In this document: piece after piece, positions 51,316-64,000 of the stretch | Position numbering within the stretch: the stretch's first letter is position 1 | Layout: the number at the start of each line of letters is the position of its first letter | Notes under the pieces: model-generated | The model's input: only the letters and a program-made list of their open reading frames with translations | Told to the model about the DNA's origin: nothing | Database searches by the model: none | Program-made: the position numbers and the translations under genes | DNA from: Flammeovirgaceae bacterium UBA2338 | Lineage (GTDB): Bacteria; Bacteroidota; Bacteroidia; Cytophagales; Cyclobacteriaceae | Assembly (NCBI GenBank): GCA_002344795.1 | Contig: DDUM01000054.1 | Span: 66,062 to 130,061, forward strand | DNA: 64,000 bases | Reading direction: 5' to 3'

Positions 51316-51927
51316 ATGAAGACAATCAGAGAATATTCATTAGCTTTTGTACTTGCATCGTTCTTGTTGGTGTCGGGGTGCGATTCGGAAACTAAAACAA
51401 TTGTTTGTAACTGCGAAGGAACATTGACAATGTTTGAGAATTATAGAGGCATTGTTGCCTTTAGTAGAACTGATCAGTTTATTATTGTTTCAGATCAGCT
51501 AGGATTTGTTGTCCCTTGCGAGGGATTTGATTCTGCCATGATGATTGATGGTGAAAAGATTATATTCTCAGGAACCTACATTTCAAACTGCACCGAATAT
51601 AATACCTCATACGGCATTAACACATTTAATGTTCAATTGTCAAGCATTGAGCGTTCAGATACTATTTACAGCAAACCGCCCTTAAAAATTGAAATAATTA
51701 AATCAGAAGACTATGGTTACCCAGTTGGATTCGGTTATCGCTTGGAATATAAAAATACCTTTAAAATTTTACAGCCGTTTTTGCCTGGGGTCGGAGGATT
51801 CGTTCCGTTTTCGACTAGTGCGGATGCATTTAAGATAGCTGTCAAAACAGGTTATCGATTAAGTAAAATAAATGACTTGCCATCAACCCCGTTTACTGAC
51901 CTTTACTATTTACGAATTATTAATTAG
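51316..51927 (+). CDS. Lipoprotein with DUF4907-like C-terminal domain
   Basis: Lipobox VSGC; GFGY...ILQPFLPGVGG..PFSTSADAFKIA. Confidence 0.6.
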   Translation: MKTIREYSLAFVLASFLLVSGCDSETKTIVCNCEGTLTMFENYRGIVAFSRTDQFIIVSDQLGFVVPCEGFDSAMMIDGEKIIFSGTYISNCTEYNTSYGINTFNVQLSSIERSDTIYSKPPLKIEIIKSEDYGYPVGFGYRLEYKNTFKILQPFLPGVGGFVPFSTSADAFKIAVKTGYRLSKINDLPSTPFTDLYYLRIIN

Positions 51928-51974
51928 TCACATACACGAGAAATTAATATTCAGTTGGACTATCAAACCCACTC

Positions 51975-52040
51975 AATAAGGTAACTATTCAAGCCGTTGT
52001 AACTTATTTTGACAGCGGAGGCGCTTGCGCTTCACCTGAA
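51975..52040 (+). pseudogene. Unannotated remnant of a paralogue of the 52739 secreted protein
   Basis: Translates NKVTIQAVVTYFDSGGACASPE versus NKVTLQAVIQYFDPNGSGSCASPE at 52997-53068. Confidence 0.75.
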
Positions 52041-52053
52041 AAACAACAAATGC

Positions 52054-52732
52054 ATGAAAGATCTTAAATGTCTTGTACTTCTAATGATACTTTTGGGATT
52101 CACGATCTCATCCTCAGCACAATCATTTATTTCAGAAGTTGAAATATTTGGTGGTACATCTCACAGTTATCTTAGGTGGGACTTCCCATACAGGCAAAAC
52201 TTGAATTTATCATTCGTAGGTGGAATTGGTGTAACTCACATTGTTAGAGAACGAATCGAAATTGATGCCAAAATTATGGTTGAGGAAAAAGGTTTCCAAA
52301 CTGATTATGTAGAGACGCTTTTTGATGCCAATAACAATGCAATAACATCACGATATATTCAATCTGGTCAACTAAGGTATACAACACTAGTCCTTATGCC
52401 TAGGATATTATTGGACAATAGAAATCATTTTTTTACTGGTATAGGATCTTATTTTTCATTGTTGAATAGAGCGAGCGAAACCAGTGGAAAGGTTTTCAAT
52501 AGATGGGTCTCAGTTCTCATTCAATCATACAGAAACCACTAAAAACTTTAGATCGTTTGACTTTGGTATTTCTGCTGCCATTGGGTACAAAAGGCCTTTG
52601 GGTACTAAGTTTGGAATAACAAGTCAACTCTTCCTGAATTGGGGACTCACCAATATTTCAGACCTTCCACTTAGTGCCACTAAAATTAGAAACGTTTCAA
52701 TGTCACTTTTAATTGGACTAAACATAAATTAA
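52054..52732 (+). pseudogene. Small outer-membrane beta-barrel (PorT/OMP_b-brl_2-like) split by a +1 frameshift near 52480
   Basis: ORFs 52009-52542 and 52484-52732 join into ~225 aa: signal peptide, EEKG, YTTLVL, GIGSYFS.L, then FDFGISAAIG...WGLTNI...LLIG. Confidence 0.75.
52085..52150 (+). repeat. 66-bp exact direct repeat, copy 1 (copy 2 at 57035-57100)
   Basis: TGATACTTTTGGGATTCACG...GAAGTTGAAATATTTG identical at offset 4950. Confidence 0.9.
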
Positions 52733-52738
52733 CGAACC

Positions 52739-54085
52739 ATGAAACTTATAAAAAAAAATCTCGTACTGGCCGTAATCTCGTCCGGTTTTTGTTCTCAAGC
52801 GCAACCAATAATCACTTCACAAGTTGGTGCGCTAACTCTGGTCTGCCCTGGGGCCCCAATTAGGTATGAGATAAATTCTTCGGGATCTAGTTTTTGTCAG
52901 GTGAATTGGACAATTACAGATGGATCTGGGAGCTACCAGTTTGGAAGTACTAGTACTTCCTCTATAATTTTTATTTCATGGGACGATCGAAAACCAAACA
53001 AAGTTACCCTTCAGGCGGTTATCCAGTACTTTGATCCGAATGGTTCGGGTTCGTGCGCCAGTCCGGAAACAATTACACGCACCTTTACCCACGTCCTTCG
53101 TTCAGTATTTGGAGAAACGATTACAGCGGGGACACTTCCTGCAGTTCCTTATTGTAATACATCAGCAGTAAATGTCTTGGTGAATCATATGTATATACAA
53201 AATACTGGGGGCATTGCCGAGCCCCCATTGGCCGAAGTGAATAACTATCAATGGATTCTGCCTACCGGCTGGAAAGAAGTAGGAGGGGCATCTGGAACGG
53301 TTTATACTAACGCAAATGCAATTGCGATAGAACCGATCAATCCAAGTGGAAATTGCTCCGCAGGAGGGAATATTTTGGTGAGAGGAATAGCAGGCCTAAC
53401 CAGCTGTGCAGGACTATTGGTAAGTCAGAGCTATCAAAAAACAATTCCACTTAACAGGACACCATCTTTTACAATATCCGCTTCTGGTGGATATACTGGC
53501 CAACAGCAGTGTGGTCAAACAACCCCAGTAACTTTTTCAGTTCCCGCTCAATCCTGTGCCTCAAGTTACACATGGAATTTCCCATCCGGCTGGAGTGGAT
53601 CATCCACCTCTAACTCCATTGTATTAACTCCAAGTGGAGGCGCAAATGTGGCAGGTTCAATCACTGTGACGACAAGTGTAAACAATGGATTATGCACGTT
53701 AGCTTCACCACAATTTACTATTTCTTATAGCAATCCCACACTTTCAATATCAAGTGGTAGTCCTGTATGCACAACCGGAAGCACTTTTACACTGAACAAC
53801 GTTCCTCCAGGTTCATCTGTTAGCTGGCAAGCAAGCCCGTCTTCATTATTTAGTAGCAGCTCTGGGAGTGGAGCAAGTGCATTCTTGACTGCTCTTTCAT
53901 CAAAAAGTAGTGGTGCCGGAGATATTACCTTTTATGTCAGTAATCCAGGATGTAACCTAAATGCAATAGTGCCTGGCTCTCTTTGGGTGGGTAAGCCTTC
54001 AGGTGTTATTACTAATCCCACAGGTGTACCAGCCGTTGAGGCCAATTTAGGTAGCTGGGTTGTATTTTGGGCTATAATAACATAA
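52739..54085 (+). CDS. Secreted Ig/PKD-like repeat protein, C-terminally truncated (T9SS signal absent)
   Basis: Repeated Y.W..P.GW modules, Ser/Thr/Gly-rich; stops 3 codons after a segment shared with the 54888 protease. Confidence 0.7.
   Translation: MKLIKKNLVLAVISSGFCSQAQPIITSQVGALTLVCPGAPIRYEINSSGSSFCQVNWTITDGSGSYQFGSTSTSSIIFISWDDRKPNKVTLQAVIQYFDPNGSGSCASPETITRTFTHVLRSVFGETITAGTLPAVPYCNTSAVNVLVNHMYIQNTGGIAEPPLAEVNNYQWILPTGWKEVGGASGTVYTNANAIAIEPINPSGNCSAGGNILVRGIAGLTSCAGLLVSQSYQKTIPLNRTPSFTISASGGYTGQQQCGQTTPVTFSVPAQSCASSYTWNFPSGWSGSSTSNSIVLTPSGGANVAGSITVTTSVNNGLCTLASPQFTISYSNPTLSISSGSPVCTTGSTFTLNNVPPGSSVSWQASPSSLFSSSSGSGASAFLTALSSKSSGAGDITFYVSNPGCNLNAIVPGSLWVGKPSGVITNPTGVPAVEANLGSWVVFWAIIT
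53981..54073 (+). repeat. Diverged direct repeat, copy 1 (copy 2 at 56421-56513)
   Basis: LWVGKPSGVITNPTGVPAVEANLGSWVVFWA versus IWVGKPSGVITNPSGVPAVEANIGNWVVLWA, 26/31 aa identical. Confidence 0.9.
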
Positions 54086-54870
54086 TGAAGGTCTGTTCGG
54101 AAAATAAAGGAATTTCATGGTATCAAGAAAGAATCGTAGATGCATCAAGTGCTAATCTGGGATTGGTAATTTTATTTTTTTTGACTTGCATAACTTCGCT
54201 TTATGCATTCGGACAGAATGGCTTTGCGCTTTCAGCCCCAGTGATTTACAGCAAAGTTGAAGCACCAAATAACTGGAGTCCTCCAACTGCTGTCAATCGA
54301 CTAAATCAATTCAATGGGACATCAATAGGATACGGGATAAATTTGAATTACTCGTTTCGACCAACTTTTATTACCAAAAACCAACATTTCTTTTTGAATA
54401 TTGGAGCTGGTTATTATAATCAACGATTCGACTTAGAAAGGCCATTCGATTATGTCTCGCCACTGCTGCCCATATTCTATACTGATTTATACTCTTACTA
54501 TTGCTGGCAATTGTCAGCAGGATTAACTTACAATTATCCGCTGTCCAAAAATTATTTTCTGTCAGGTAATTTAAGTTATAACAAGCTAAATTCATTTCGA
54601 CAGGAATATACCCCAACTTCTAACCACGGTTATGGTGAACTAACTCAAGTCAATCATAATCGAATAGATTTTGGTAACACTCTAGTCCTTGCAATCGGCC
54701 TTAATAGGAACTTAGGAAATGGATTTTTACTAGGACTAAATGTTTTGGTGCCTTTGTATATTCGTTGGCGTAATGATAAAATCTTTAAAGATGACCCAAC
54801 GGAATTTTCACATCCAAAATTTAGTTTGGGCTCCAGCATAAGTATAACCTATCGTTTAAAAAATATTTAA
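54067..54870 (+). CDS. Small outer-membrane beta-barrel protein; start uncertain
   Basis: Signal-like LVILFFLTCITSLYAFG-Q at aa ~33-50; alternating aromatic strands; ends SISITYRL. Confidence 0.65.
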   Translation: MGYNNIMKVCSENKGISWYQERIVDASSANLGLVILFFLTCITSLYAFGQNGFALSAPVIYSKVEAPNNWSPPTAVNRLNQFNGTSIGYGINLNYSFRPTFITKNQHFFLNIGAGYYNQRFDLERPFDYVSPLLPIFYTDLYSYYCWQLSAGLTYNYPLSKNYFLSGNLSYNKLNSFRQEYTPTSNHGYGELTQVNHNRIDFGNTLVLAIGLNRNLGNGFLLGLNVLVPLYIRWRNDKIFKDDPTEFSHPKFSLGSSISITYRLKNI

Positions 54871-54887
54871 CTTCTAAAACATGAAAC

Positions 54888-56978
54888 ATGAGACCAATTT
54901 TACTTCTGACCTTGTTCCTTGCCTCTTTGAATTTTGCAAAGGCGCAAGTAAAAACAAATTTTAACAATGCTGAGGTAATAACTGCCAAGGGAAAATTCGA
55001 TAAAAATTATCTGACAAAATCACCTCACACAATCCCAGCCAAGGATATCAAGGCTCTCCTTGAAAGAGAATCTCTAGAGAATAAATCCGGAGAGCCGAAA
55101 CCGTTTAAGATTGCTGAGGCCGTAAAAGTTGATATTGATGTTGTAAAAGAGGCTGCATGGGTGGAGGAAGTAGGATTTGCACATGGAAAATATACTATTG
55201 TTGCAAGTGGCGCAAAATCCATCAGCGCAAACTTCGATCGATTCAAACTTCCAAGGGGATCGGAATTGTATGTTTACAGTGCGAATGGAGAGATGATCAC
55301 TGGCCCCGTAACAGAGAATGAAAACAATGAGAATAATTTTTGGGGTACATGGGTCTATAAAGGCGAGGCGCTAACAGTTGATTTTAAAACCCCTATTGAA
55401 AGTAAATCAGAAATCAAACTTCATATCTCAAGCATAGCTTATGGATACAAAGAACTTTATGTCAATAATTTTGGGGAGTCTGCCGCTTGTAATATAAATG
55501 TGTTATGCATACAGGGTAATGGTTGGGAAAACGAGCGAAATTCAGTAGCTCTGATATTGGATGCCAACAGCATAGCATTGTGTACCGGAGCATTAATCAA
55601 CAACACCTGTAATTTTAACACACTAAATTTTTTAACCGCAAATCATTGTTTTGATGGGAACCCTGCAAATTGGAAATTTACTTTTCAAGCTTGGAGCTCA
55701 ACTTGCAATCCATCCCAAAATGCCAACGGAGTTACCTTAAACGGTTCTACTTTAAGAGCGCGTAATGCAGCTAGCGATTTTTGTTTAGTTGAATTAAACC
55801 AAATGCCCCCTGCAAATTCAAATATCACGTTTGCTGGATGGAATAGGAATCCCGCTGCTGCCTTAAATACGGTGGGAATTCACCATCCTGCTGGGGACGT
55901 TATGAAAATTGCAATTGACGCAAATCCCCCTGTAGCTGTGGCATGGTTTACAGGGGCGACAAACCATTGGAGGGCTCATTTTCAACAAGGGACTGTCCAG
56001 CCTGGATCATCTGGATCTCCACTATTTGATCAAAATCATAGAATAATTGGCCAACTACACGGAGATCAAAATAATCAAGGAAATTACTGCACTCAACAAA
56101 TCGGTGAATATGGTAGATTTGATGTTTCATGGGTGGGGGGTGGAACGAACGATACAAGACTAAGTAACTGGCTTGATCCAAATAATACGGGGGCATTGAC
56201 TACAGACACTCGAGGAAATGAAATAACAGGACCTGCACTTGTTTGTACAACTGCAAACTATACTTTTGATGGGCAAGTAACATGGTCATCGAGCAATCCA
56301 AATGGATTAAACATTAATTCCACAACGGGGGCAGCCACACGCGTTAACAAATTCAATGGTCAGGTTACCATTACGGCAACTATAAATAGTGGTTGTGGAG
56401 GCGTAAATGTTGATAGGACTATCTGGGTAGGTAAACCATCAGGTGTTATCACCAATCCCTCAGGTGTGCCAGCTGTTGAGGCGAACATAGGCAATTGGGT
56501 TGTATTATGGGCAACCTCAACTCCAGGTGCCACAACCAGTTCGCTAAATTGGTGGACCAATAATGCAGCGGCTCTTAATTTAAATGTAGGTTATGGAAAT
56601 TGTTCGGTGGAATGCTTACAAGCAGGTTATAACTTTATCTATGTAACTTCCAGCAATGCCTGTGGTACCAATTTGGTTCGTCAAATACCGATCAGCGTTA
56701 CATCTGGCGGTTGTCAAAATCCACCTTGCAATCCCATGTTCGTATCCCCGAACCCCTCATCCTCATATTTCGAAGTAAGCCTTGATTTGACACGTGAAGA
56801 ATATACGAAAGGGTACGATGTTAAACTATATGATAGCAACCAAATGAATTTGGTATATCAAACTACCTCTACCGAACCGATAATAAGGATTGAGACATTG
56901 AGCCTCAAAAAGGGGATGTATATACTACAAATGACGACCTACAAACAGGTGATTACAGACAGGGTTTTAATTGAATGA
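54888..56978 (+). CDS. Secreted trypsin-like (lysyl endopeptidase-type S1) protease with PKD-like and T9SS type A C-terminal domains
   Basis: Triad FLTANHC / SDFCL / PGSSGSPLF; C-terminal VSPNPSS...KGMYIL. Confidence 0.88.
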   Translation: MRPILLLTLFLASLNFAKAQVKTNFNNAEVITAKGKFDKNYLTKSPHTIPAKDIKALLERESLENKSGEPKPFKIAEAVKVDIDVVKEAAWVEEVGFAHGKYTIVASGAKSISANFDRFKLPRGSELYVYSANGEMITGPVTENENNENNFWGTWVYKGEALTVDFKTPIESKSEIKLHISSIAYGYKELYVNNFGESAACNINVLCIQGNGWENERNSVALILDANSIALCTGALINNTCNFNTLNFLTANHCFDGNPANWKFTFQAWSSTCNPSQNANGVTLNGSTLRARNAASDFCLVELNQMPPANSNITFAGWNRNPAAALNTVGIHHPAGDVMKIAIDANPPVAVAWFTGATNHWRAHFQQGTVQPGSSGSPLFDQNHRIIGQLHGDQNNQGNYCTQQIGEYGRFDVSWVGGGTNDTRLSNWLDPNNTGALTTDTRGNEITGPALVCTTANYTFDGQVTWSSSNPNGLNINSTTGAATRVNKFNGQVTITATINSGCGGVNVDRTIWVGKPSGVITNPSGVPAVEANIGNWVVLWATSTPGATTSSLNWWTNNAAALNLNVGYGNCSVECLQAGYNFIYVTSSNACGTNLVRQIPISVTSGGCQNPPCNPMFVSPNPSSSYFEVSLDLTREEYTKGYDVKLYDSNQMNLVYQTTSTEPIIRIETLSLKKGMYILQMTTYKQVITDRVLIE

Positions 56979-57003
56979 TTTATTGAGGCTCAAGCTTAGA
57001 TTG

Positions 57004-57320
57004 ACGAAAGATATTAAATGCCCTATCCTTCTAGTGATACTTTTGGGATTCACGATCTCATCCTCAGCACAATCATTTATTTCAGAAGTTGAAATATTTG
57101 CAGGGCCATCATTACTTTCTATTCGAGATAACAATCAATATAAGAAATATGGGGAGATTAAGATTGGGTATTCCTTTGGAGCAGGATTGGTTCATAAAAT
57201 CAGCAAAGTTGGGCTGTCAATACCCTGATAGGTTTTGAGAGAAAGGGATATAACAAGAACCATTATAAAAAGGATCCCCCTCTTTTGCCGAATGACCAAT
57301 TACCTATAGAGAATATCTAA
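57004..57320 (+). pseudogene. Degraded small beta-barrel gene sharing its 5' end with the 52054 gene
   Basis: ACG aligned to ATG 52054, 66-bp identity, stop at 57226-57228, shifted frame continues LIGFERKGY to TAA 57320. Confidence 0.75.
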
Positions 57321-57370: not shown

Positions 57371-58588
57371 GTGAGACAAAAGGAAGCTAAGTATCAATTC
57401 GAAGCGGTGTTTAATCATGCCACAATTGGAATGATTATAGCCGATTCAGAAGGGAGAATCACACAGTTCAATCGGTTTGCCGAAACACAGTTTGGTTATT
57501 CTGAAGAAGAGGTCATTGGCGAATCAATAGAGATGCTGCTTCCAGTAGAGATGAAAGAGCGGCATATCCATCATCGTGACCAATTTATCAAAGCTCCATC
57601 CAATAGAGCAATGGGAGCGGGTAGAGATTTATTCGCAAAACGAAAAGACAACACAGTATTTCCTGTTGAGGTCAGCCTGAGCCATTTTAAGAAAGAAGAG
57701 GAGAGCTTTGTAATCGCATTTATTATAGATATCTCAGTAAGAAAAAAAAATGAAGCAGAGCTAGCGGAGTCCACAGAGAAGATAAAAATAATAAACACTG
57801 AGCTGGAGGAAAAGATAGACAGCAGAACCAAAATGCTGCGTGAGACCTTAGCAGAACTGGAGGCATCCAAAGAGAATTTGCATAAGGCGTTAAAAAAAGA
57901 AAGAGAATTAGGAGATCTTAAGTCCAGATTTGTAACCCTGGCCTCGCATGAGTTTAGAACTCCTTTAAGTACGATTTTGTTGTCAGCATCTTTAATAGGA
58001 AAATATACTTTAGAAGAGGAGGATGTAAAAAGACAAAAGCATGTTGACCGGATAAAAGAAGCAGTTAACAATATGCGTGACATTTTAGAAGACTTTCTGT
58101 CTTTAGGAAAATTGGAAGAAGGACAGGTGGATGTCAATATGGAATTACTATCCAATGAAGAACTAAAAGAAGAGCTCTATAAGGTGGTAAATAGTATGGA
58201 GCAGCTTCGTAAAGATGGGCAAAAAATCAACTTTGAGTGTAATGCAGATGCTGTAAAAGTCGACAAGAAGCTAATGGCAAGTGTTCTCTCCAACCTTCTT
58301 TCCAATGCAATAAAATTCAGCCCGGAGAACTCGAAAATTCAATTGAAATGTGAAATGAGTAATAATGTATTTCGTTTTATGGTAAAAGATGCTGGAATTG
58401 GCATATCAGAGGAGGACCAGCAACATCTATTCGAACGATTTTTTAGGGCTCAGAATGCATCCAATATACAAGGTACTGGGTTGGGCTTAAATATTGTATC
58501 CAAATACCTGGAGTTGATGGGGGGTAAAATAAACTGTAAAAGTGAGATAAATGTTGGGACTACCTTTTACATAGAAATTCCGCAATAA
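57371..58588 (+). CDS. PAS-domain sensor histidine kinase, FixL-like heme-PAS
   Basis: LLPxxxxxxH (His65) and AMGAGR (Arg85); HEFRTPL; NLLSNAIKF, DAGIG, GTGLGL; GTG start. Confidence 0.88.
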   Translation: MRQKEAKYQFEAVFNHATIGMIIADSEGRITQFNRFAETQFGYSEEEVIGESIEMLLPVEMKERHIHHRDQFIKAPSNRAMGAGRDLFAKRKDNTVFPVEVSLSHFKKEEESFVIAFIIDISVRKKNEAELAESTEKIKIINTELEEKIDSRTKMLRETLAELEASKENLHKALKKERELGDLKSRFVTLASHEFRTPLSTILLSASLIGKYTLEEEDVKRQKHVDRIKEAVNNMRDILEDFLSLGKLEEGQVDVNMELLSNEELKEELYKVVNSMEQLRKDGQKINFECNADAVKVDKKLMASVLSNLLSNAIKFSPENSKIQLKCEMSNNVFRFMVKDAGIGISEEDQQHLFERFFRAQNASNIQGTGLGLNIVSKYLELMGGKINCKSEINVGTTFYIEIPQ

Positions 58589-58635
58589 TCCGTTTTACTT
58601 TTGCTAATCTTGTATTAGTGGAATAATATTTCTTT

Positions 58636-59694
58636 ATGAAAAACATTCTGATCATCGAAGATAACCTGGAGGTAAGGGAGAATACGGCTGAGATCCTTGA
58701 ATTGGCCGGCTACAAGGTGTTTACAGCAGAGAACGGTAAAATTGGAGTAGAAGTAGCCATTGATGAGAAGCCTGACCTAATTGTATGCGATATTATGATG
58801 CCTGTGCTGGATGGCTACGGGGTGCTTCATTTGCTCAGTAAAAACCCCGAAACCACAACTATCCCATTTATTTTTTTAACTGCAAAAGCAGAGAAAAGCG
58901 ACTATCAAAAGGGGATGGAAATGGGTGCGGATGGGTATATTTCTAAACCTTTTGATGACACTGAGCTTCTTAATGCAATCGAAACAAGGTTAAGAAAGAG
59001 TGAGATTCTGAAACGAAGCTATACTCATGACCAGGCGGGTGTAGATAGTTTTATTGATTCAGTAAAGTCAAGTACCAATATAAAATTGCTGTCAGACGGT
59101 TATGAGGTGGCTAAGTTCAAGAAAAAGCACTCCTTGTATTCTGAAGCAGGATATCCCCGGAATTTGTTTTTTGTAAAATCCGGAAAGGTAAAAACCTATA
59201 AAATCAACGAGGATGGCAAAGAGTTGATTATTGAGGTAAGCAGTACTGGAGACTTTGTAGGCTATACACCTATTTTGGAAGATACTATTTACAAAGATGC
59301 TGCTGAAATATTGGAGGATGCTGAGGTAATGATCATTCCTCGTGAGGATTTTGTTAACCTGATTAGCTACGATAGTCAGGTAGCTGGCCAGTTTATCAAA
59401 CTGCTTGCAAAAAATGTTAGAGAAAAAGAAGATCGGTTGCTTAGTCTGGCATATAACTCTGTGCGTAAACGTGTCGCTTCCGGTTTGATTGAAATATTTG
59501 ACAAGTTCAAAGGGGAGACGCAAGAGGACACCAGAATAAAAATATCACGCGATGATTTGGCAAGAATCGTAGGCACTGCAACAGAATCTTTAATCAGGAC
59601 CTTAAGCGATTTTAAAAGCGAAAAATTGATAGATATTGAATCTGGTAAAATACTTATCCTCCAGGAAAACAAGTTGAGGTATTTGTCCAATTAG
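58636..59694 (+). CDS. Response regulator fusing REC, cNMP-like and Crp/Fnr HTH domains
   Basis: IIED, CD52IMMP, FLTAK; second half YNSVRKRVA and ISRDDLARIVGTATESLIR. Confidence 0.9.
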   Translation: MKNILIIEDNLEVRENTAEILELAGYKVFTAENGKIGVEVAIDEKPDLIVCDIMMPVLDGYGVLHLLSKNPETTTIPFIFLTAKAEKSDYQKGMEMGADGYISKPFDDTELLNAIETRLRKSEILKRSYTHDQAGVDSFIDSVKSSTNIKLLSDGYEVAKFKKKHSLYSEAGYPRNLFFVKSGKVKTYKINEDGKELIIEVSSTGDFVGYTPILEDTIYKDAAEILEDAEVMIIPREDFVNLISYDSQVAGQFIKLLAKNVREKEDRLLSLAYNSVRKRVASGLIEIFDKFKGETQEDTRIKISRDDLARIVGTATESLIRTLSDFKSEKLIDIESGKILILQENKLRYLSN

Positions 59695-60050
59695 TGGTTA
59701 TTCATCAGTTCGGCTTCATGGTTCTGTCTTTCCAATGACCAATCTTCGGTTAATGAAGTTTCGATCCACATGGAGCCGGATTTGCGGTAAACCAGGCACA
59801 ATATTCCTGTTTTTTCAAGAACTATAGCTTTTAGCTGGGCTACGGTGGTGGAAGGGCTCAGATTTACAGAAATAGAATCTTTACTCAGTGGAAAGTTAGA
59901 AGCCAAAAGGGGGCCTGTTTTGTAATTCTTGCTATCAGAAGGATTTAATAGAGGTTTGAAAAACTCAATTTTTAAGAATGGAAAGAGCGTTGTGAAATCT
60001 TTCTGAAAACCACCTACTGATTTACCTTCATCAATTTTTAGAACCGGCAT
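59691..60050 (-). CDS. Hypothetical cytoplasmic protein
   Basis: FPFLKIEFF, TTVAQL, VYRKSG.MWIET.LT.DWSL..QN; start ATG 60050 or TTG 60068. Confidence 0.7.
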   Translation of the reverse strand: MPVLKIDEGKSVGGFQKDFTTLFPFLKIEFFKPLLNPSDSKNYKTGPLLASNFPLSKDSISVNLSPSTTVAQLKAIVLEKTGILCLVYRKSGSMWIETSLTEDWSLERQNHEAELMNNH

Positions 60051-60088: not shown

Positions 60089-60096
60089 CAAAGTTA
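60089..60096 (-). promoter_or_regulatory. -7 element TAACTTTG
   Basis: Exact TAnnTTTG on the minus strand, 23 nt from the proximal Fnr-type box. Confidence 0.65.
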
Positions 60097-60119: not shown

Positions 60120-60153
60120 TGATTGCTGTCAAGTTGGGCTATGATAAAAATCA
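60120..60153. promoter_or_regulatory. Tandem Fnr/FixK-type boxes
   Basis: TGATTGCTGTCA (60120-60131) and TGATAAAAATCA (60142-60153), 22-bp period. Confidence 0.7.
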
Positions 60154-62679: not shown

Positions 62680-62713
62680 TGATAACCATCAAGACACCGA
62701 ATGATAAAGGTCA
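62680..62713. promoter_or_regulatory. Tandem Fnr/FixK-type boxes upstream of ppsA
   Basis: TGATAACCATCA (62680-62691) and TGATAAAGGTCA (62702-62713), 22-bp period. Confidence 0.7.
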
Positions 62714-63772
62714 ATTTTGAATGCTTGATGTACCTAAAAGCACCGACCAGGTTTTCAGTTTTGGCGAGTTATCAACGATAAGCTTGGCGATGGCAAGAAA
62801 AGGCACAAATAGAATCATGCCTGCAACACCCCAGATAATGCCACCAACAACGATTGCACTAATTGTAGCTAAGGCATTGATTTTCAATTTATTGCTAACA
62901 GCAAGTGGAAATATTAGGTTGGCTTCCAGGTATTGAACAAGGGAGAACAAAAAAACAACCCCTATTGGATACCAAATTGAATTGTAAGTGATCCATGACA
63001 TGGTCATGGGTAAGAGTGCCCCAACCATAATACCGACATAAGGGATGAAGGTAAGAATGGCCGCAGTATAGCCGAAGAAAATAGCATGAGGTACGCCCAA
63101 TACAAGTAATCCAACACTGTTTAATGTACCTACAGCAAGGTAAACAATACCCATACCTTTAATGAAGTTGTAATAGGCCGTAATGGTTTGACTGAGAACA
63201 GCTTTGATGCCTACTCGGCTTTCTATCGGGAAAATCATATACAAGGCCTTCACCAGCCTTTTTCTGTAAAAAAGTATAAGTGTTGAGTATATGGGAACCA
63301 GAATAAGCAAAACTGCAGATAGACTATAAGTGGATATCAAATGCCGAATAAGAGTAAACAAATTACCACTAGATTGATTGAGAATTTGGGTGAGGAGCTC
63401 ATTTTGCCGTATACGACTAACACCAAAAGTGGTGAATATATAGCCGCTGAATTGTTCGATAACTTCGAGGAGTTTTACTTTGATTACGGGCCACTCTGAA
63501 ATGAAGGTAGTAAACTGATATACCAATAGGAGGATTATTGCGGCTCCAAAAAGAATAACAACCGACATACTAAAAAGTATCGAAGCCATTCTGTTAATTG
63601 ATTTGCCTTCCAGCCACACACAAATGGGGTAGAGTACGAAACTAATCAGGACAGCAAAACTTAATGGAATAAAAAATGTGCGTCCGAAATACAGGATTAC
63701 GGATCCAAAAAAAACAGCTTGTAAAGCGACCAGATAACTATTGTTCCCTTTTGGAAGTGAGCGCAGTCCCAT
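62711..63772 (-). CDS. AI-2E (PerM/UPF0118) family transporter
   Basis: FFIPLSFA, PICVWLE, FIPYVG, VQYLEANLIFP, IWGVAGMILFVP. Confidence 0.9.
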   Translation of the reverse strand: MGLRSLPKGNNSYLVALQAVFFGSVILYFGRTFFIPLSFAVLISFVLYPICVWLEGKSINRMASILFSMSVVILFGAAIILLLVYQFTTFISEWPVIKVKLLEVIEQFSGYIFTTFGVSRIRQNELLTQILNQSSGNLFTLIRHLISTYSLSAVLLILVPIYSTLILFYRKRLVKALYMIFPIESRVGIKAVLSQTITAYYNFIKGMGIVYLAVGTLNSVGLLVLGVPHAIFFGYTAAILTFIPYVGIMVGALLPMTMSWITYNSIWYPIGVVFLFSLVQYLEANLIFPLAVSNKLKINALATISAIVVGGIIWGVAGMILFVPFLAIAKLIVDNSPKLKTWSVLLGTSSIQN

Positions 63773-63898: not shown

Positions 63899-63953
63899 TG
63901 ATAACAGTAAGTCAGGTGAATGATAAAAGTCAGTAAATAATTGATAAAAGTGT
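63899..63953. promoter_or_regulatory. Three phased Fnr/FixK-type boxes upstream of the AI-2E gene
   Basis: TGATAACAGTAA (63899), TGATAAAAGTCA (63921), TGATAAAAGTGT (63942); periods 22 and 21 bp. Confidence 0.6.
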
Positions 63954-64000
63954 ACTTATTTGAGGTGTCTATCTTTTAATACATCGCTTCTTTTAATTCC

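Follow-up and report, generated by a model that had tools for sequence, protein, structure and literature searches.

A putative two-protein low-oxygen switch of a haem-PAS kinase and a receiver–Crp/Fnr regulator in a Cyclobacteriaceae genome

The window analysed here is a 64,000-nucleotide (nt) stretch of contig DDUM01000054.1 from Flammeovirgaceae bacterium UBA2338 (Cyclobacteriaceae, Bacteroidota), and the system in question is a pair of genes at 57371–59694 that encode a soluble histidine kinase with a FixL-like PAS domain and a response regulator in which a receiver (REC) is fused to a Crp/Fnr body. The pair was interpreted as a two-protein switch that responds to hypoxia, or to another gas or redox signal, and drives low-oxygen and dormancy genes, a reading of the whole chain to which we assign a probability of about 0.6. 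The observations obtained by computation were the membership of the PAS domain in a haem-binding clade, the cognate pairing of the two genes, intact phospho-relay residues, a phased operator at a constant distance from the −7 promoter element and the content of the genes behind it.

In the proposed mechanism, the kinase would hold haem b on His65 of its FixL/DosP-type PAS domain, with Arg85 on the distal side hydrogen-bonding bound O2. As in FixL, autophosphorylation at His193 would occur when the sensor is unliganded, at low O2, and the phosphate would then move from His193 to Asp52 of the adjacent regulator. The OmpR/PhoB-like receiver of that regulator sits where FNR-like relatives have an N-terminal Cys cluster, and its phosphorylation would most likely favour dimerisation of the Crp/Fnr body into its active state. 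Two such dimers would bind cooperatively to TGAY-N4-ATCA boxes spaced by 22 base pairs (bp) and, once bound, would activate class II promoters at low O2.

An original prediction, made from the sequence alone, had proposed that a FixL-type kinase phosphorylates a FixK-like activator directly. The two open reading frames (ORFs) were recovered as it gave them, and the features of the pair used below are as follows.

57371..58588, + strand, soluble sensor histidine kinase, 405 amino acids (aa), GTG start (ORF, Pfam, AlphaFold 2 (AF2) model and hydropathy)
57395..57736, + strand, FixL/DosP-type (haem-type) PAS domain, residues 9–122 (gapless FixL alignment, profile search and Foldseek)
57563..57565, + strand, CAT codon of His65, candidate proximal haem ligand, aligned to His200 of Bradyrhizobium FixL (BjFixL)
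57623..57625, + strand, AGA codon of Arg85, candidate distal ligand-binding Arg, aligned to BjFixL Arg220
57947..57949, + strand, codon of His193, putative phospho-acceptor in the H-box ASHEFRTPL (HisKA match and sequence reading)
58262..58582, + strand, HATPase_c catalytic domain (Pfam PF02518, 94 bits)
58636..59694, + strand, response regulator, 352 aa, with REC, linker, cNMP-binding-like beta-barrel and Crp-type helix-turn-helix (HTH) (ORF and Pfam)
58789..58791, + strand, codon of Asp52, putative receiver phospho-acceptor
59113..59367, + strand, cNMP-binding-like barrel (Pfam PF00027)
59581..59598, + strand, recognition helix T316-E-S-L-I-R321, of the E-x3-R (FNR/FixK) type (sequence reading)

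The kinase and its PAS domain

All of the diagnostic residues named in the original prediction were found in their places. In the kinase these were LLP at residues 56–58, His65 six residues on and AMGAGR at 80–85, with Arg85 exactly 20 residues past His65; in the regulator they were Asp52, TESLIR and the lack of an FNR-type Cys cluster. The alignment with FixL that had been suggested as a check ran without gaps across approximately 117 residues against both BjFixL (1dp6) and RmFixL (1d06). In it, His65 corresponds to His200, and Arg85 to Arg220, the G-beta Arg within IIGIGR. Among the other pocket positions, FixL His214 aligned with an invariant Arg79, and FixL Leu236 and Ile238 with conserved Val/Ile101 and Leu103. 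The roles of His200, Arg220 and the other pocket residues have been described for FixL, the distal Arg hydrogen-bonding the bound ligand and being important for O2 binding (PMC10765370).

When the PAS domain alone was searched against the PDB, the best matches were BjFixL (E 2e-15), RmFixL and DosP (5e-12). A family profile was also built from 57 PAS domains of kinases adjoining REC-Crp regulators. The 14 distinct PDB sequences that it matched best (E 6e-25 to 1e-20) were without exception FixL, DosP/EcDOS or 10jx, and the next match was the LOV domain of YtvA at 1e-8, a gap of 12 orders of magnitude. A LOV or flavin PAS reading was rejected on the latter value. The 10jx entry, found at E 1.6e-21, is the haem-binding PAS domain of FG214 (preprint 10.64898/2026.03.15.711900).

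Structure prediction gave a similar placement. A fold search with the whole kinase mostly matched kinase cores, with the LOV-FixL chimera YF1 (4gcz) second, and was therefore repeated with a PAS-only AF2 model (predicted local distance difference test score, pLDDT, 92.6), as kinase cores are uninformative on haem. The 21 best Foldseek matches of this model in the PDB were all FixL or EcDOS, with query-normalised template modelling (TM) scores of 0.66–0.89 and root-mean-square deviations (rmsd) of 1.7–3.0 Å; for the FixL PAS dimer the values were 0.85–0.89 and 1.7–2.0 Å. His65 is located in helix 59–74 of the model, the F-alpha position. By sequence profile and predicted fold, the domain belongs to the FixL/DosP/FG214 haem-PAS clade, in agreement with the FixL-type reading of the original prediction. 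The kinase is predicted with good confidence to bind haem, and if it does, O2 is likely to be its main signal.

The same residues were examined in relatives. Among close orthologues, defined as single-PAS kinases of at least 55 % identity, His65 was invariant in 73 of 73 and Arg85 in 74 of 74. His65 was likewise present in all 65 kinases that partner a REC-Crp regulator, with variation at the adjacent positions. On this basis, the present kinase is a FixL-like Arg type of haem-PAS protein.

The Pfam domains of the kinase (PAS 9–121, HisKA 184–251 and HATPase_c 298–404) all exceeded the curated cut-offs, and A191-S192-H193-E194-F195 of the H-box was invariant. No membrane segment was detected in the kinase by hydropathy, the Kyte–Doolittle 19-residue mean peaking at 0.77, and the AF2 model contained a single unbroken helix (122–211) linking the PAS domain to the dimerisation and histidine phosphotransfer (DHp) domain. 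The lack of a hydrophobic segment combined with the continuous helix indicates a soluble protein of PAS, coiled coil and kinase. The closest relatives in the databases were proteins of Cyclobacteriaceae metagenome-assembled genomes, at 82–95 % identity. Together with a type IX secretion sorting domain on a neighbouring protease, these relatives point to a Bacteroidota host of the Cytophagales type.

The regulator and its tandem operator

The Pfam domains of the regulator were Response_reg (4–116), cNMP_binding (160–244) and HTH_Crp_2 (279–348), all above the curated cut-offs (PF00072 98 bits, PF00027 59.6, PF13545 48.5 and PF00325 24.4 bits), and the same three-domain layout occurred in all 120 regulator homologues among the matches listed. 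The receiver retains the expected residues E8/D9, D52, T82 and K104. A comparison of 28 homologues, drawn from several orders, showed D9, D52, T82 and K104 to be invariant and E8 nearly so. Its top NCBIfam matches were regulators of the OmpR/PhoB family. The barrel carries the segment GDFVGY...KDA, which was aligned by eye with the E. coli CRP counterpart, G-E...R-S-A. As far as can be read from this comparison, the barrel appears to be without CRP's cAMP contacts. The recognition helix reads GTATESLIRTLSDF, the form GTATESLIRTLSDFK is almost constant across the regulator family, and E317–R321 of TESLIR was invariant in the 28 homologues. The only Cys of the protein is C51, in the receiver, and an FNR-type Cys cluster is therefore absent. 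The 60 best matches to the regulator in the PDB included no structure of a receiver–Crp fusion.

The kinase and regulator genes are co-directional and 47 nt apart. A set of 80 regulator-centred loci from other Bacteroidota species (1.26 Mb in total) was used for comparison, and in 72 of these the kinase gene lay immediately upstream of the regulator gene in the same orientation, usually at a gap of 5–50 nt. On gene order, the kinase and the regulator are a cognate pair, which bears out the earlier proposal that the REC-Crp protein is the kinase's direct partner. The supposition that similar pairs are widespread also held: a relative of the regulator is encoded in at least 594 species-representative genomes, and a full-length REC-Crp fusion was found in 20 of 151 sampled Bacteroidota genomes. 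A literature search for Bacteroidota examples of either protein type, REC-Crp regulator or FixL-type kinase, found no publication; the original prediction likewise knew of no characterised case in the phylum.

A candidate operator was found close to the pair, consisting of two TGAY-N4-ATCA boxes at a spacing of exactly 22 bp. The sites in the window are listed below.

60120..60153, − strand, tandem operator TGATTTTTATCA-N10-TGACAGCAATCA, 0 mismatches, upstream of the gene for a 119-aa protein
60089-60096, − strand, perfect −7 element TAACTTTG, 23 nt downstream of the 60120..60153 operator
62680..62713, − strand, tandem operator TGACCTTTATCA-N10-TGATGGTTATCA, 0 mismatches, upstream of ppsA
63899..63954, − strand, three boxes phased at 22 bp (pair at 63899-63932), in the divergent AI-2E / P-type ATPase–HPF region

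The spacing was strict. With up to one mismatch, the window contained five matches (three sites) at 22 bp against 0.03 expected by chance. Across the whole genome there were five exact matches and 18 with up to one mismatch at this spacing, compared to no exact and 0–8 one-mismatch matches at any other spacing from 14 to 35. The 80 loci gave 147 matches at 22 bp and 0–6 at other spacings. Distinct sites in these loci numbered 106, spread over 55 loci, and 60 of the sites lay no further than 2 kb from the operon. In the present genome, the three window sites all follow the regulator gene at distances of up to 4.3 kb, and eight of the 18 genome matches are inside the 14 kb downstream of it. The third box of the 63899..63954 region is weaker (ACACTTTTATCA, 63942-63953, − strand) and lies 22 bp upstream of the pair; the three phased boxes could serve both directions.

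When 77 oriented sites were stacked, an unselected TAnnTTTG motif emerged exactly 23 nt after box 2, which we take to be the Bacteroidota −7 promoter element consensus. No conserved −33 element was present in the stacked sites. The 62680..62713 operator likewise has a −7-like TATTTTAC 23 nt downstream. On the assumption that TAnnTTTG covers roughly −12 to −5, the centres of boxes 2 and 1 fall near −41.5 and −63.5, respectively. This geometry is that of a class II activator, with a further dimer placed two helical turns upstream. In the stacked sites, the outer T/A that the canonical FNR box TTGAT-N4-ATCAA carries (positions 0 and 13) was not conserved; this may be related to the Ile in the regulator helix at a position where the FNR helix has Ser. 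We predict with good confidence that the REC-Crp regulator binds the tandem boxes.

Across genomes, tandem-box counts followed the Crp-body clade. The number of tandem boxes had a median of approximately 4 (range 0–21) in genomes with the fusion and was mostly 0–2 in those without. The exceptions among the latter, with 6–17 matches, encode stand-alone homologues of approximately 35 % identity with the helix GTATETAIRLLSEF and adjoining boxes; most of these homologues have an N-terminal C-x2-C-x8-C...C motif.

L090, L091, L092, L093 (genomes G038, G078, G082, G134), Cys-motif stand-alone Crp/Fnr homologues with a near-identical recognition helix, next to tandem boxes
L089:5066-7935, one strand, three-gene row in the same-family genome G134: kinase, NarL/FixJ-type regulator and 229-aa Crp protein

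The Cys-motif proteins are probably the iron-sulfur, FNR-type counterparts of the receiver fusion. Compared to an FNR-like ancestor or cousin, the fusion has a receiver in place of the Cys-rich N-terminus. A role of the receiver as an inter-dimer bridge at tandem boxes was considered less likely, as the receiver-less homologues have the same boxes. In the row of G134, the kinase is a PAS-PAS-HisKA_3 protein whose first PAS domain is FixL-like with the His kept and the Arg lost, and the 229-aa Crp protein is without Cys motif or receiver and has tandem boxes and an Hsp20 gene close by. Judged by its gene order and domains, this row keeps the three tiers separate, in an uncondensed layout, and gives the strongest support to the original idea that one tier has been removed in the fused system.

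Target genes and alternative explanations

Within the window, the regulator gene is followed by these genes.

59691..60050, − strand, 119-aa protein of no known family; the gene runs towards that of the regulator (convergent) and overlaps the regulator stop codon
60264..62627, − strand, ppsA (phosphoenolpyruvate synthase), putative target (Pfam; operator 52 nt upstream)
62711..63772, − strand, AI-2E family transporter, putative target (Pfam; operator upstream)

A gene for a P-type cation ATPase is divergent from the AI-2E gene and starts just past the window end, followed by HPF/S30AE and tandem-Usp genes and, farther on, a second tandem-Usp gene, a 208-aa gene and an AAA_33 plus APH-like pair. 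The sites define a 14-kb island that begins directly after the regulator gene. Elsewhere in the genome, sites precede a Usp–CcoI operon, an M50-CBS protease gene (a perfect tandem site at C36:57570-57603) and YceI. With the −7 element as a filter, the genome count was 11 sites at spacing 22 compared to 0–3 at other spacings, and sites also probably precede Dps-, OsmC-, RtcB- and DUF302-like genes, named from N-terminal sequence only. The FixK-like output that had been proposed was supported by the FNR/FixK-type boxes around the pair and by relatives, in which the genes behind sites encoded Usp (7), fused CcoNO (COX1+FixO; 6), CcoI/FixI-type ATPase (6), DoxX (5), Rrf2 (4), HSP20 (3), HemN-type radical SAM (3), ScdA/RIC (3), cytochrome c (3), thioredoxin and hemerythrin. 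Of these, ccoNO, ccoI and hemN form the classical FixK/FNR low-oxygen set. The kinase–regulator operon was itself a target in approximately six loci.

The best operator of the window, together with its −7 element, lies in the promoter of the 119-aa gene. A homologue of the protein occurred in 28 of the 80 loci, usually near the regulator, and the family was found in Bacteroidota only. It has an invariant C-terminal motif, R-x-S-G-x-x-W-I-E-x-S-L-T-x-x-W-x-L-x-x-Q-N. No relative of the 119-aa protein was found in Pfam, NCBIfam or the PDB; sub-threshold ubiquitin-like matches were obtained for 6–7 of 24 members. That it acts as a FixT-like feedback element is pure conjecture, by analogy.

Several observations weigh against the reading of the pair as a hypoxia switch. 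At the level of the sensor, residue 85 in the 65 partner kinases was Arg in 29, Met in 24, Leu in 7 and another residue in 5, such that about half (31 of 65) had Met or Leu instead of Arg. Of the two residues whose conservation in orthologues had been put forward as a check, His65 was therefore upheld throughout and Arg85 in the close orthologues but not in the partner kinases; on sequence, the distal Arg is a feature of this kinase and not of the whole partner-kinase family. The FixL residues Arg206 and Ile215 are represented by Gln71 and Ala80, at positions that are both variable. The scores against equivalog models were also low, at 113 bits with a cut-off of 850 for NCBIfam FixL (NF041777), where the match was limited to the PAS part (residues 9–136 on FixL positions 124–251), and 74.6 bits with a cut-off of 300 for FixK (NF050806). 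The regulator scored level with this against the Fnr (72 bits) and CRP (71.3) models, all far under the cut-offs.

At the level of the operator and its targets, no tandem site was found upstream of the kinase gene in this genome, though relatives show autoregulation, and the genome's own ccoN promoter has a single perfect box TGACCAAAATCA (C78:1336) without a phased partner. Among the four HTH_Crp_2 proteins of the genome, one of which has a CRP-like helix, two other paralogues carry E-x3-R helices (C87, VETVIR; C36, REVVSR) and could share half-sites. Because receiver-less stand-alone homologues share the boxes, these are a property of the Crp-body clade and not of the receiver, and the assignment of the operator to the REC-Crp regulator consequently rests on proximity and co-occurrence. 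The genes ppsA, APH-like, AAA_33 and M50-CBS were near the pair in none of the 80 loci, and AI-2E, P-type ATPase and HPF in 2–4 of 80. On this distribution, the local targets are lineage-specific regulon members rather than a conserved core, and the regulon in this genome appears, from its gene content, to be closer to a set for dormancy and stress than to one for respiration or nitrogen fixation.

The fused ccoNO gene was split over two contig ends by an assembly break (C78:1432-2910 and C6:166032-166688). A paralogue family of 566-aa kinases with two PAS domains was also observed, in which the His is kept and Asn or Ser occupies the residue-85 position. Variation on the distal side is known among haem-PAS proteins, with Arg in FixL, Met95/Arg97 in EcDOS and His/Met in FG214 (preprint 10.64898/2026.03.15.711900). 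The clade was read here as one of fixed proximal His and tunable distal side, and the Arg/Met/Leu/Asn/Ser variation suggests differing ligand chemistry inside one signalling family.

This variation bears on an alternative in which the kinase binds haem but responds to nitric oxide (NO), carbon monoxide (CO) or haem/cellular redox, with a regulon for nitrosative or redox stress. The Met found in 24 partner kinases recalls the His/Met of FG214 and Met95 of EcDOS, a small residue replaces distal Ile215 of FixL, and ScdA/RIC, Rrf2-type regulators, hemerythrin and DoxX are encoded behind sites in relatives. Against this, the distal Arg, with its role in O2 binding (PMC10765370), is kept here and in all 74 close orthologues, and ccoNO, ccoI and hemN are classical low-O2 targets. 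NO sensing could moreover be served by a separate Crp paralogue (helix AREVVSR), which was observed in a cluster at C36:70202-82726 with an Rrf2 regulator, a nor-like haem-copper oxidase and RIC/ScdA genes, probably a separate NO/denitrification circuit by its gene content. We consider this alternative unlikely, though it is the most plausible of those weighed. The possibility that the PAS domain binds another small ligand or none, its FixL-like motif reflecting shared ancestry only, is improbable. It would account for the alignment of the propionate-holding Arg206 and His214 of FixL with Gln71 and Arg79, and for the appearance at rank 22 of the fold search of the PAS domain 3bwl, for which haem binding is not described. 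It is opposed by the 14 top profile matches, all experimentally haem-binding and followed by the gap of 12 orders, by a proximal His that is invariant in 65 of 65 partners while its neighbours vary, and by a pocket that stays hydrophobic at I22, I53, L56, L57, V101, L103 and F117; no LOV-type Cys motif was seen on direct reading of the sequence.

A further alternative accepts the sensor but has another Crp/Fnr protein as the main operator of the tandem boxes, the REC-Crp regulator having other targets. The E-x3-R helices of the C87 and C36 paralogues and the tandem boxes of fusion-less genomes with Cys-type homologues are in its favour. In 55 of 80 species, however, the boxes are grouped around the REC-Crp gene, 60 of the 106 sites lying no more than 2 kb away, and the 8 of 18 matches within 14 kb downstream of it in this genome follow the same pattern. 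The TESLIR helix is invariant across several orders, a site stands before the kinase–regulator operon itself in about six relatives, and no Cys cluster was found among the genome's four HTH_Crp_2 proteins, leaving it without a Cys-cluster FNR homologue. This is the least probable of the three, and the reading of the kinase and the REC-Crp regulator as one hypoxia switch is preferred.

Relation to known systems

The nearest functional parallel is the FixL-FixJ-FixK cascade of Bradyrhizobium, Sinorhizobium and Caulobacter, together with hFixL-FxkR-FixK of Rhizobium leguminosarum. Shared with the present system are a sensor of the haem-PAS type with identical His/Arg spacing, a layout of PAS, coiled coil, DHp and catalytic and ATP-binding (CA) domains, and a final Crp/Fnr regulator for boxes of the TGA-N6-TCA type, the targets in relatives of the present system including fixNO (ccoNO), fixI (ccoI) and hemN. 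The present system differs in having two proteins rather than three, with receiver and Crp body in one 352-aa chain, a direct fusion that makes both a FixJ/FxkR-type regulator and a transcriptional relay unnecessary. It has one PAS domain compared to two, obligate box pairs phased at 22 bp without the outer T/A of TTGAT-N4-ATCAA, a regulon mostly of stress/dormancy genes and a host in the phylum Bacteroidota. Since the NCBIfam FixL and FixK equivalog cut-offs are reached by neither protein, the system is analogous rather than orthologous to the cascade.

The DosS/DosT-DosR (DevR) system of Mycobacterium tuberculosis is similar in that a haem-based kinase feeds a response regulator. DevR/DosR promoters have phased tandem boxes at −42.5/−63.5 with cooperative binding and activation, and the DosR regulon includes ctpF, Rv0079, Usps, hspX and the Rv2626c–Rv2625c operon (PMC3177182). 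Usps, a P-type cation ATPase (ctpF) and alpha-crystallin are thus common to both regulons. HPF-type and M50-CBS genes are further parallels, Rv0079 being an S30AE/HPF-type factor and Rv2625c an M50-CBS protease. In DosS/DosT-DosR, however, the haem is held in a GAF domain, the regulator is NarL-type and the operator sequence is unrelated, and the resemblance is convergent and not homologous. Since the equivalog tests fail and the architectures differ, the system belongs to neither FixL-FixJ-FixK nor DosS/T-DosR. By analogy, it would work like FixL-FixJ-FixK with FixJ and FixK fused, and at the regulon level like DosS/T-DosR.

Two further comparisons concern single components. FNR and the Bacteroidota Cys-motif FNR-like proteins share the barrel, dimer helix and HTH body and the E-x3-R helix, but in the present regulator a receiver and a linker of roughly 35 residues stand in place of the Cys-rich N-terminus, and the proposed input is phosphorylation by a kinase instead of direct cluster chemistry. 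FG214 of Fimbriimonas ginsengisoli is a haem-PAS-HTH one-component switch with a haem-PAS of the same clade, in which the haem state controls dimerisation of the DNA-binding protein (preprint 10.64898/2026.03.15.711900). It differs in its one-component design, its bis-His or His/Met coordination and its lack of kinase, receiver and Crp/Fnr body.

Newly described here are the strict 22-bp tandem architecture, the −41.5/−63.5 geometry, the dormancy-type island, the Arg/Met split at the distal residue and the occurrence side by side of fused, Cys-type and three-tier forms. A single bacterial family uses three routes to drive the same Crp/Fnr body, namely a fused receiver, a Cys motif and a FixJ-type relay, which constitutes a natural experiment in the architecture of signalling; if the reading is true, it would show how phosphorylation can control the Crp/Fnr fold, in a design that comes with a sharply defined, testable operator. 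To our knowledge, oxygen sensing in aerobic and micro-aerobic Bacteroidota (Cytophagales, Chitinophagales, Sphingobacteriales and Flavobacteriales) is essentially undescribed. A broader and distinctly more tentative proposal, which we rate as possible though rather doubtful, is that aerobic Bacteroidota rely on REC-Crp/Fnr hybrids and their haem-PAS kinases as the main hypoxia/dormancy switch. The hybrids would then make up a so far unstudied response-regulator class, with Asp phosphorylation gating dimerisation in place of FNR's iron-sulfur cluster, two cooperating dimers would activate class II promoters from boxes phased at 22 bp, the regulon would have converged on DosR content and geometry, and the 119-aa protein might be FixT-like.

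The region upstream of the kinase (51927-57320) holds small beta-barrel-like ORFs and genes for secreted PKD/trypsin-like cargo of the type IX secretion system (T9SS), some apparently truncated. This array seems unrelated to the switch. A T9SS sorting domain was identified by Pfam on a neighbouring protease.

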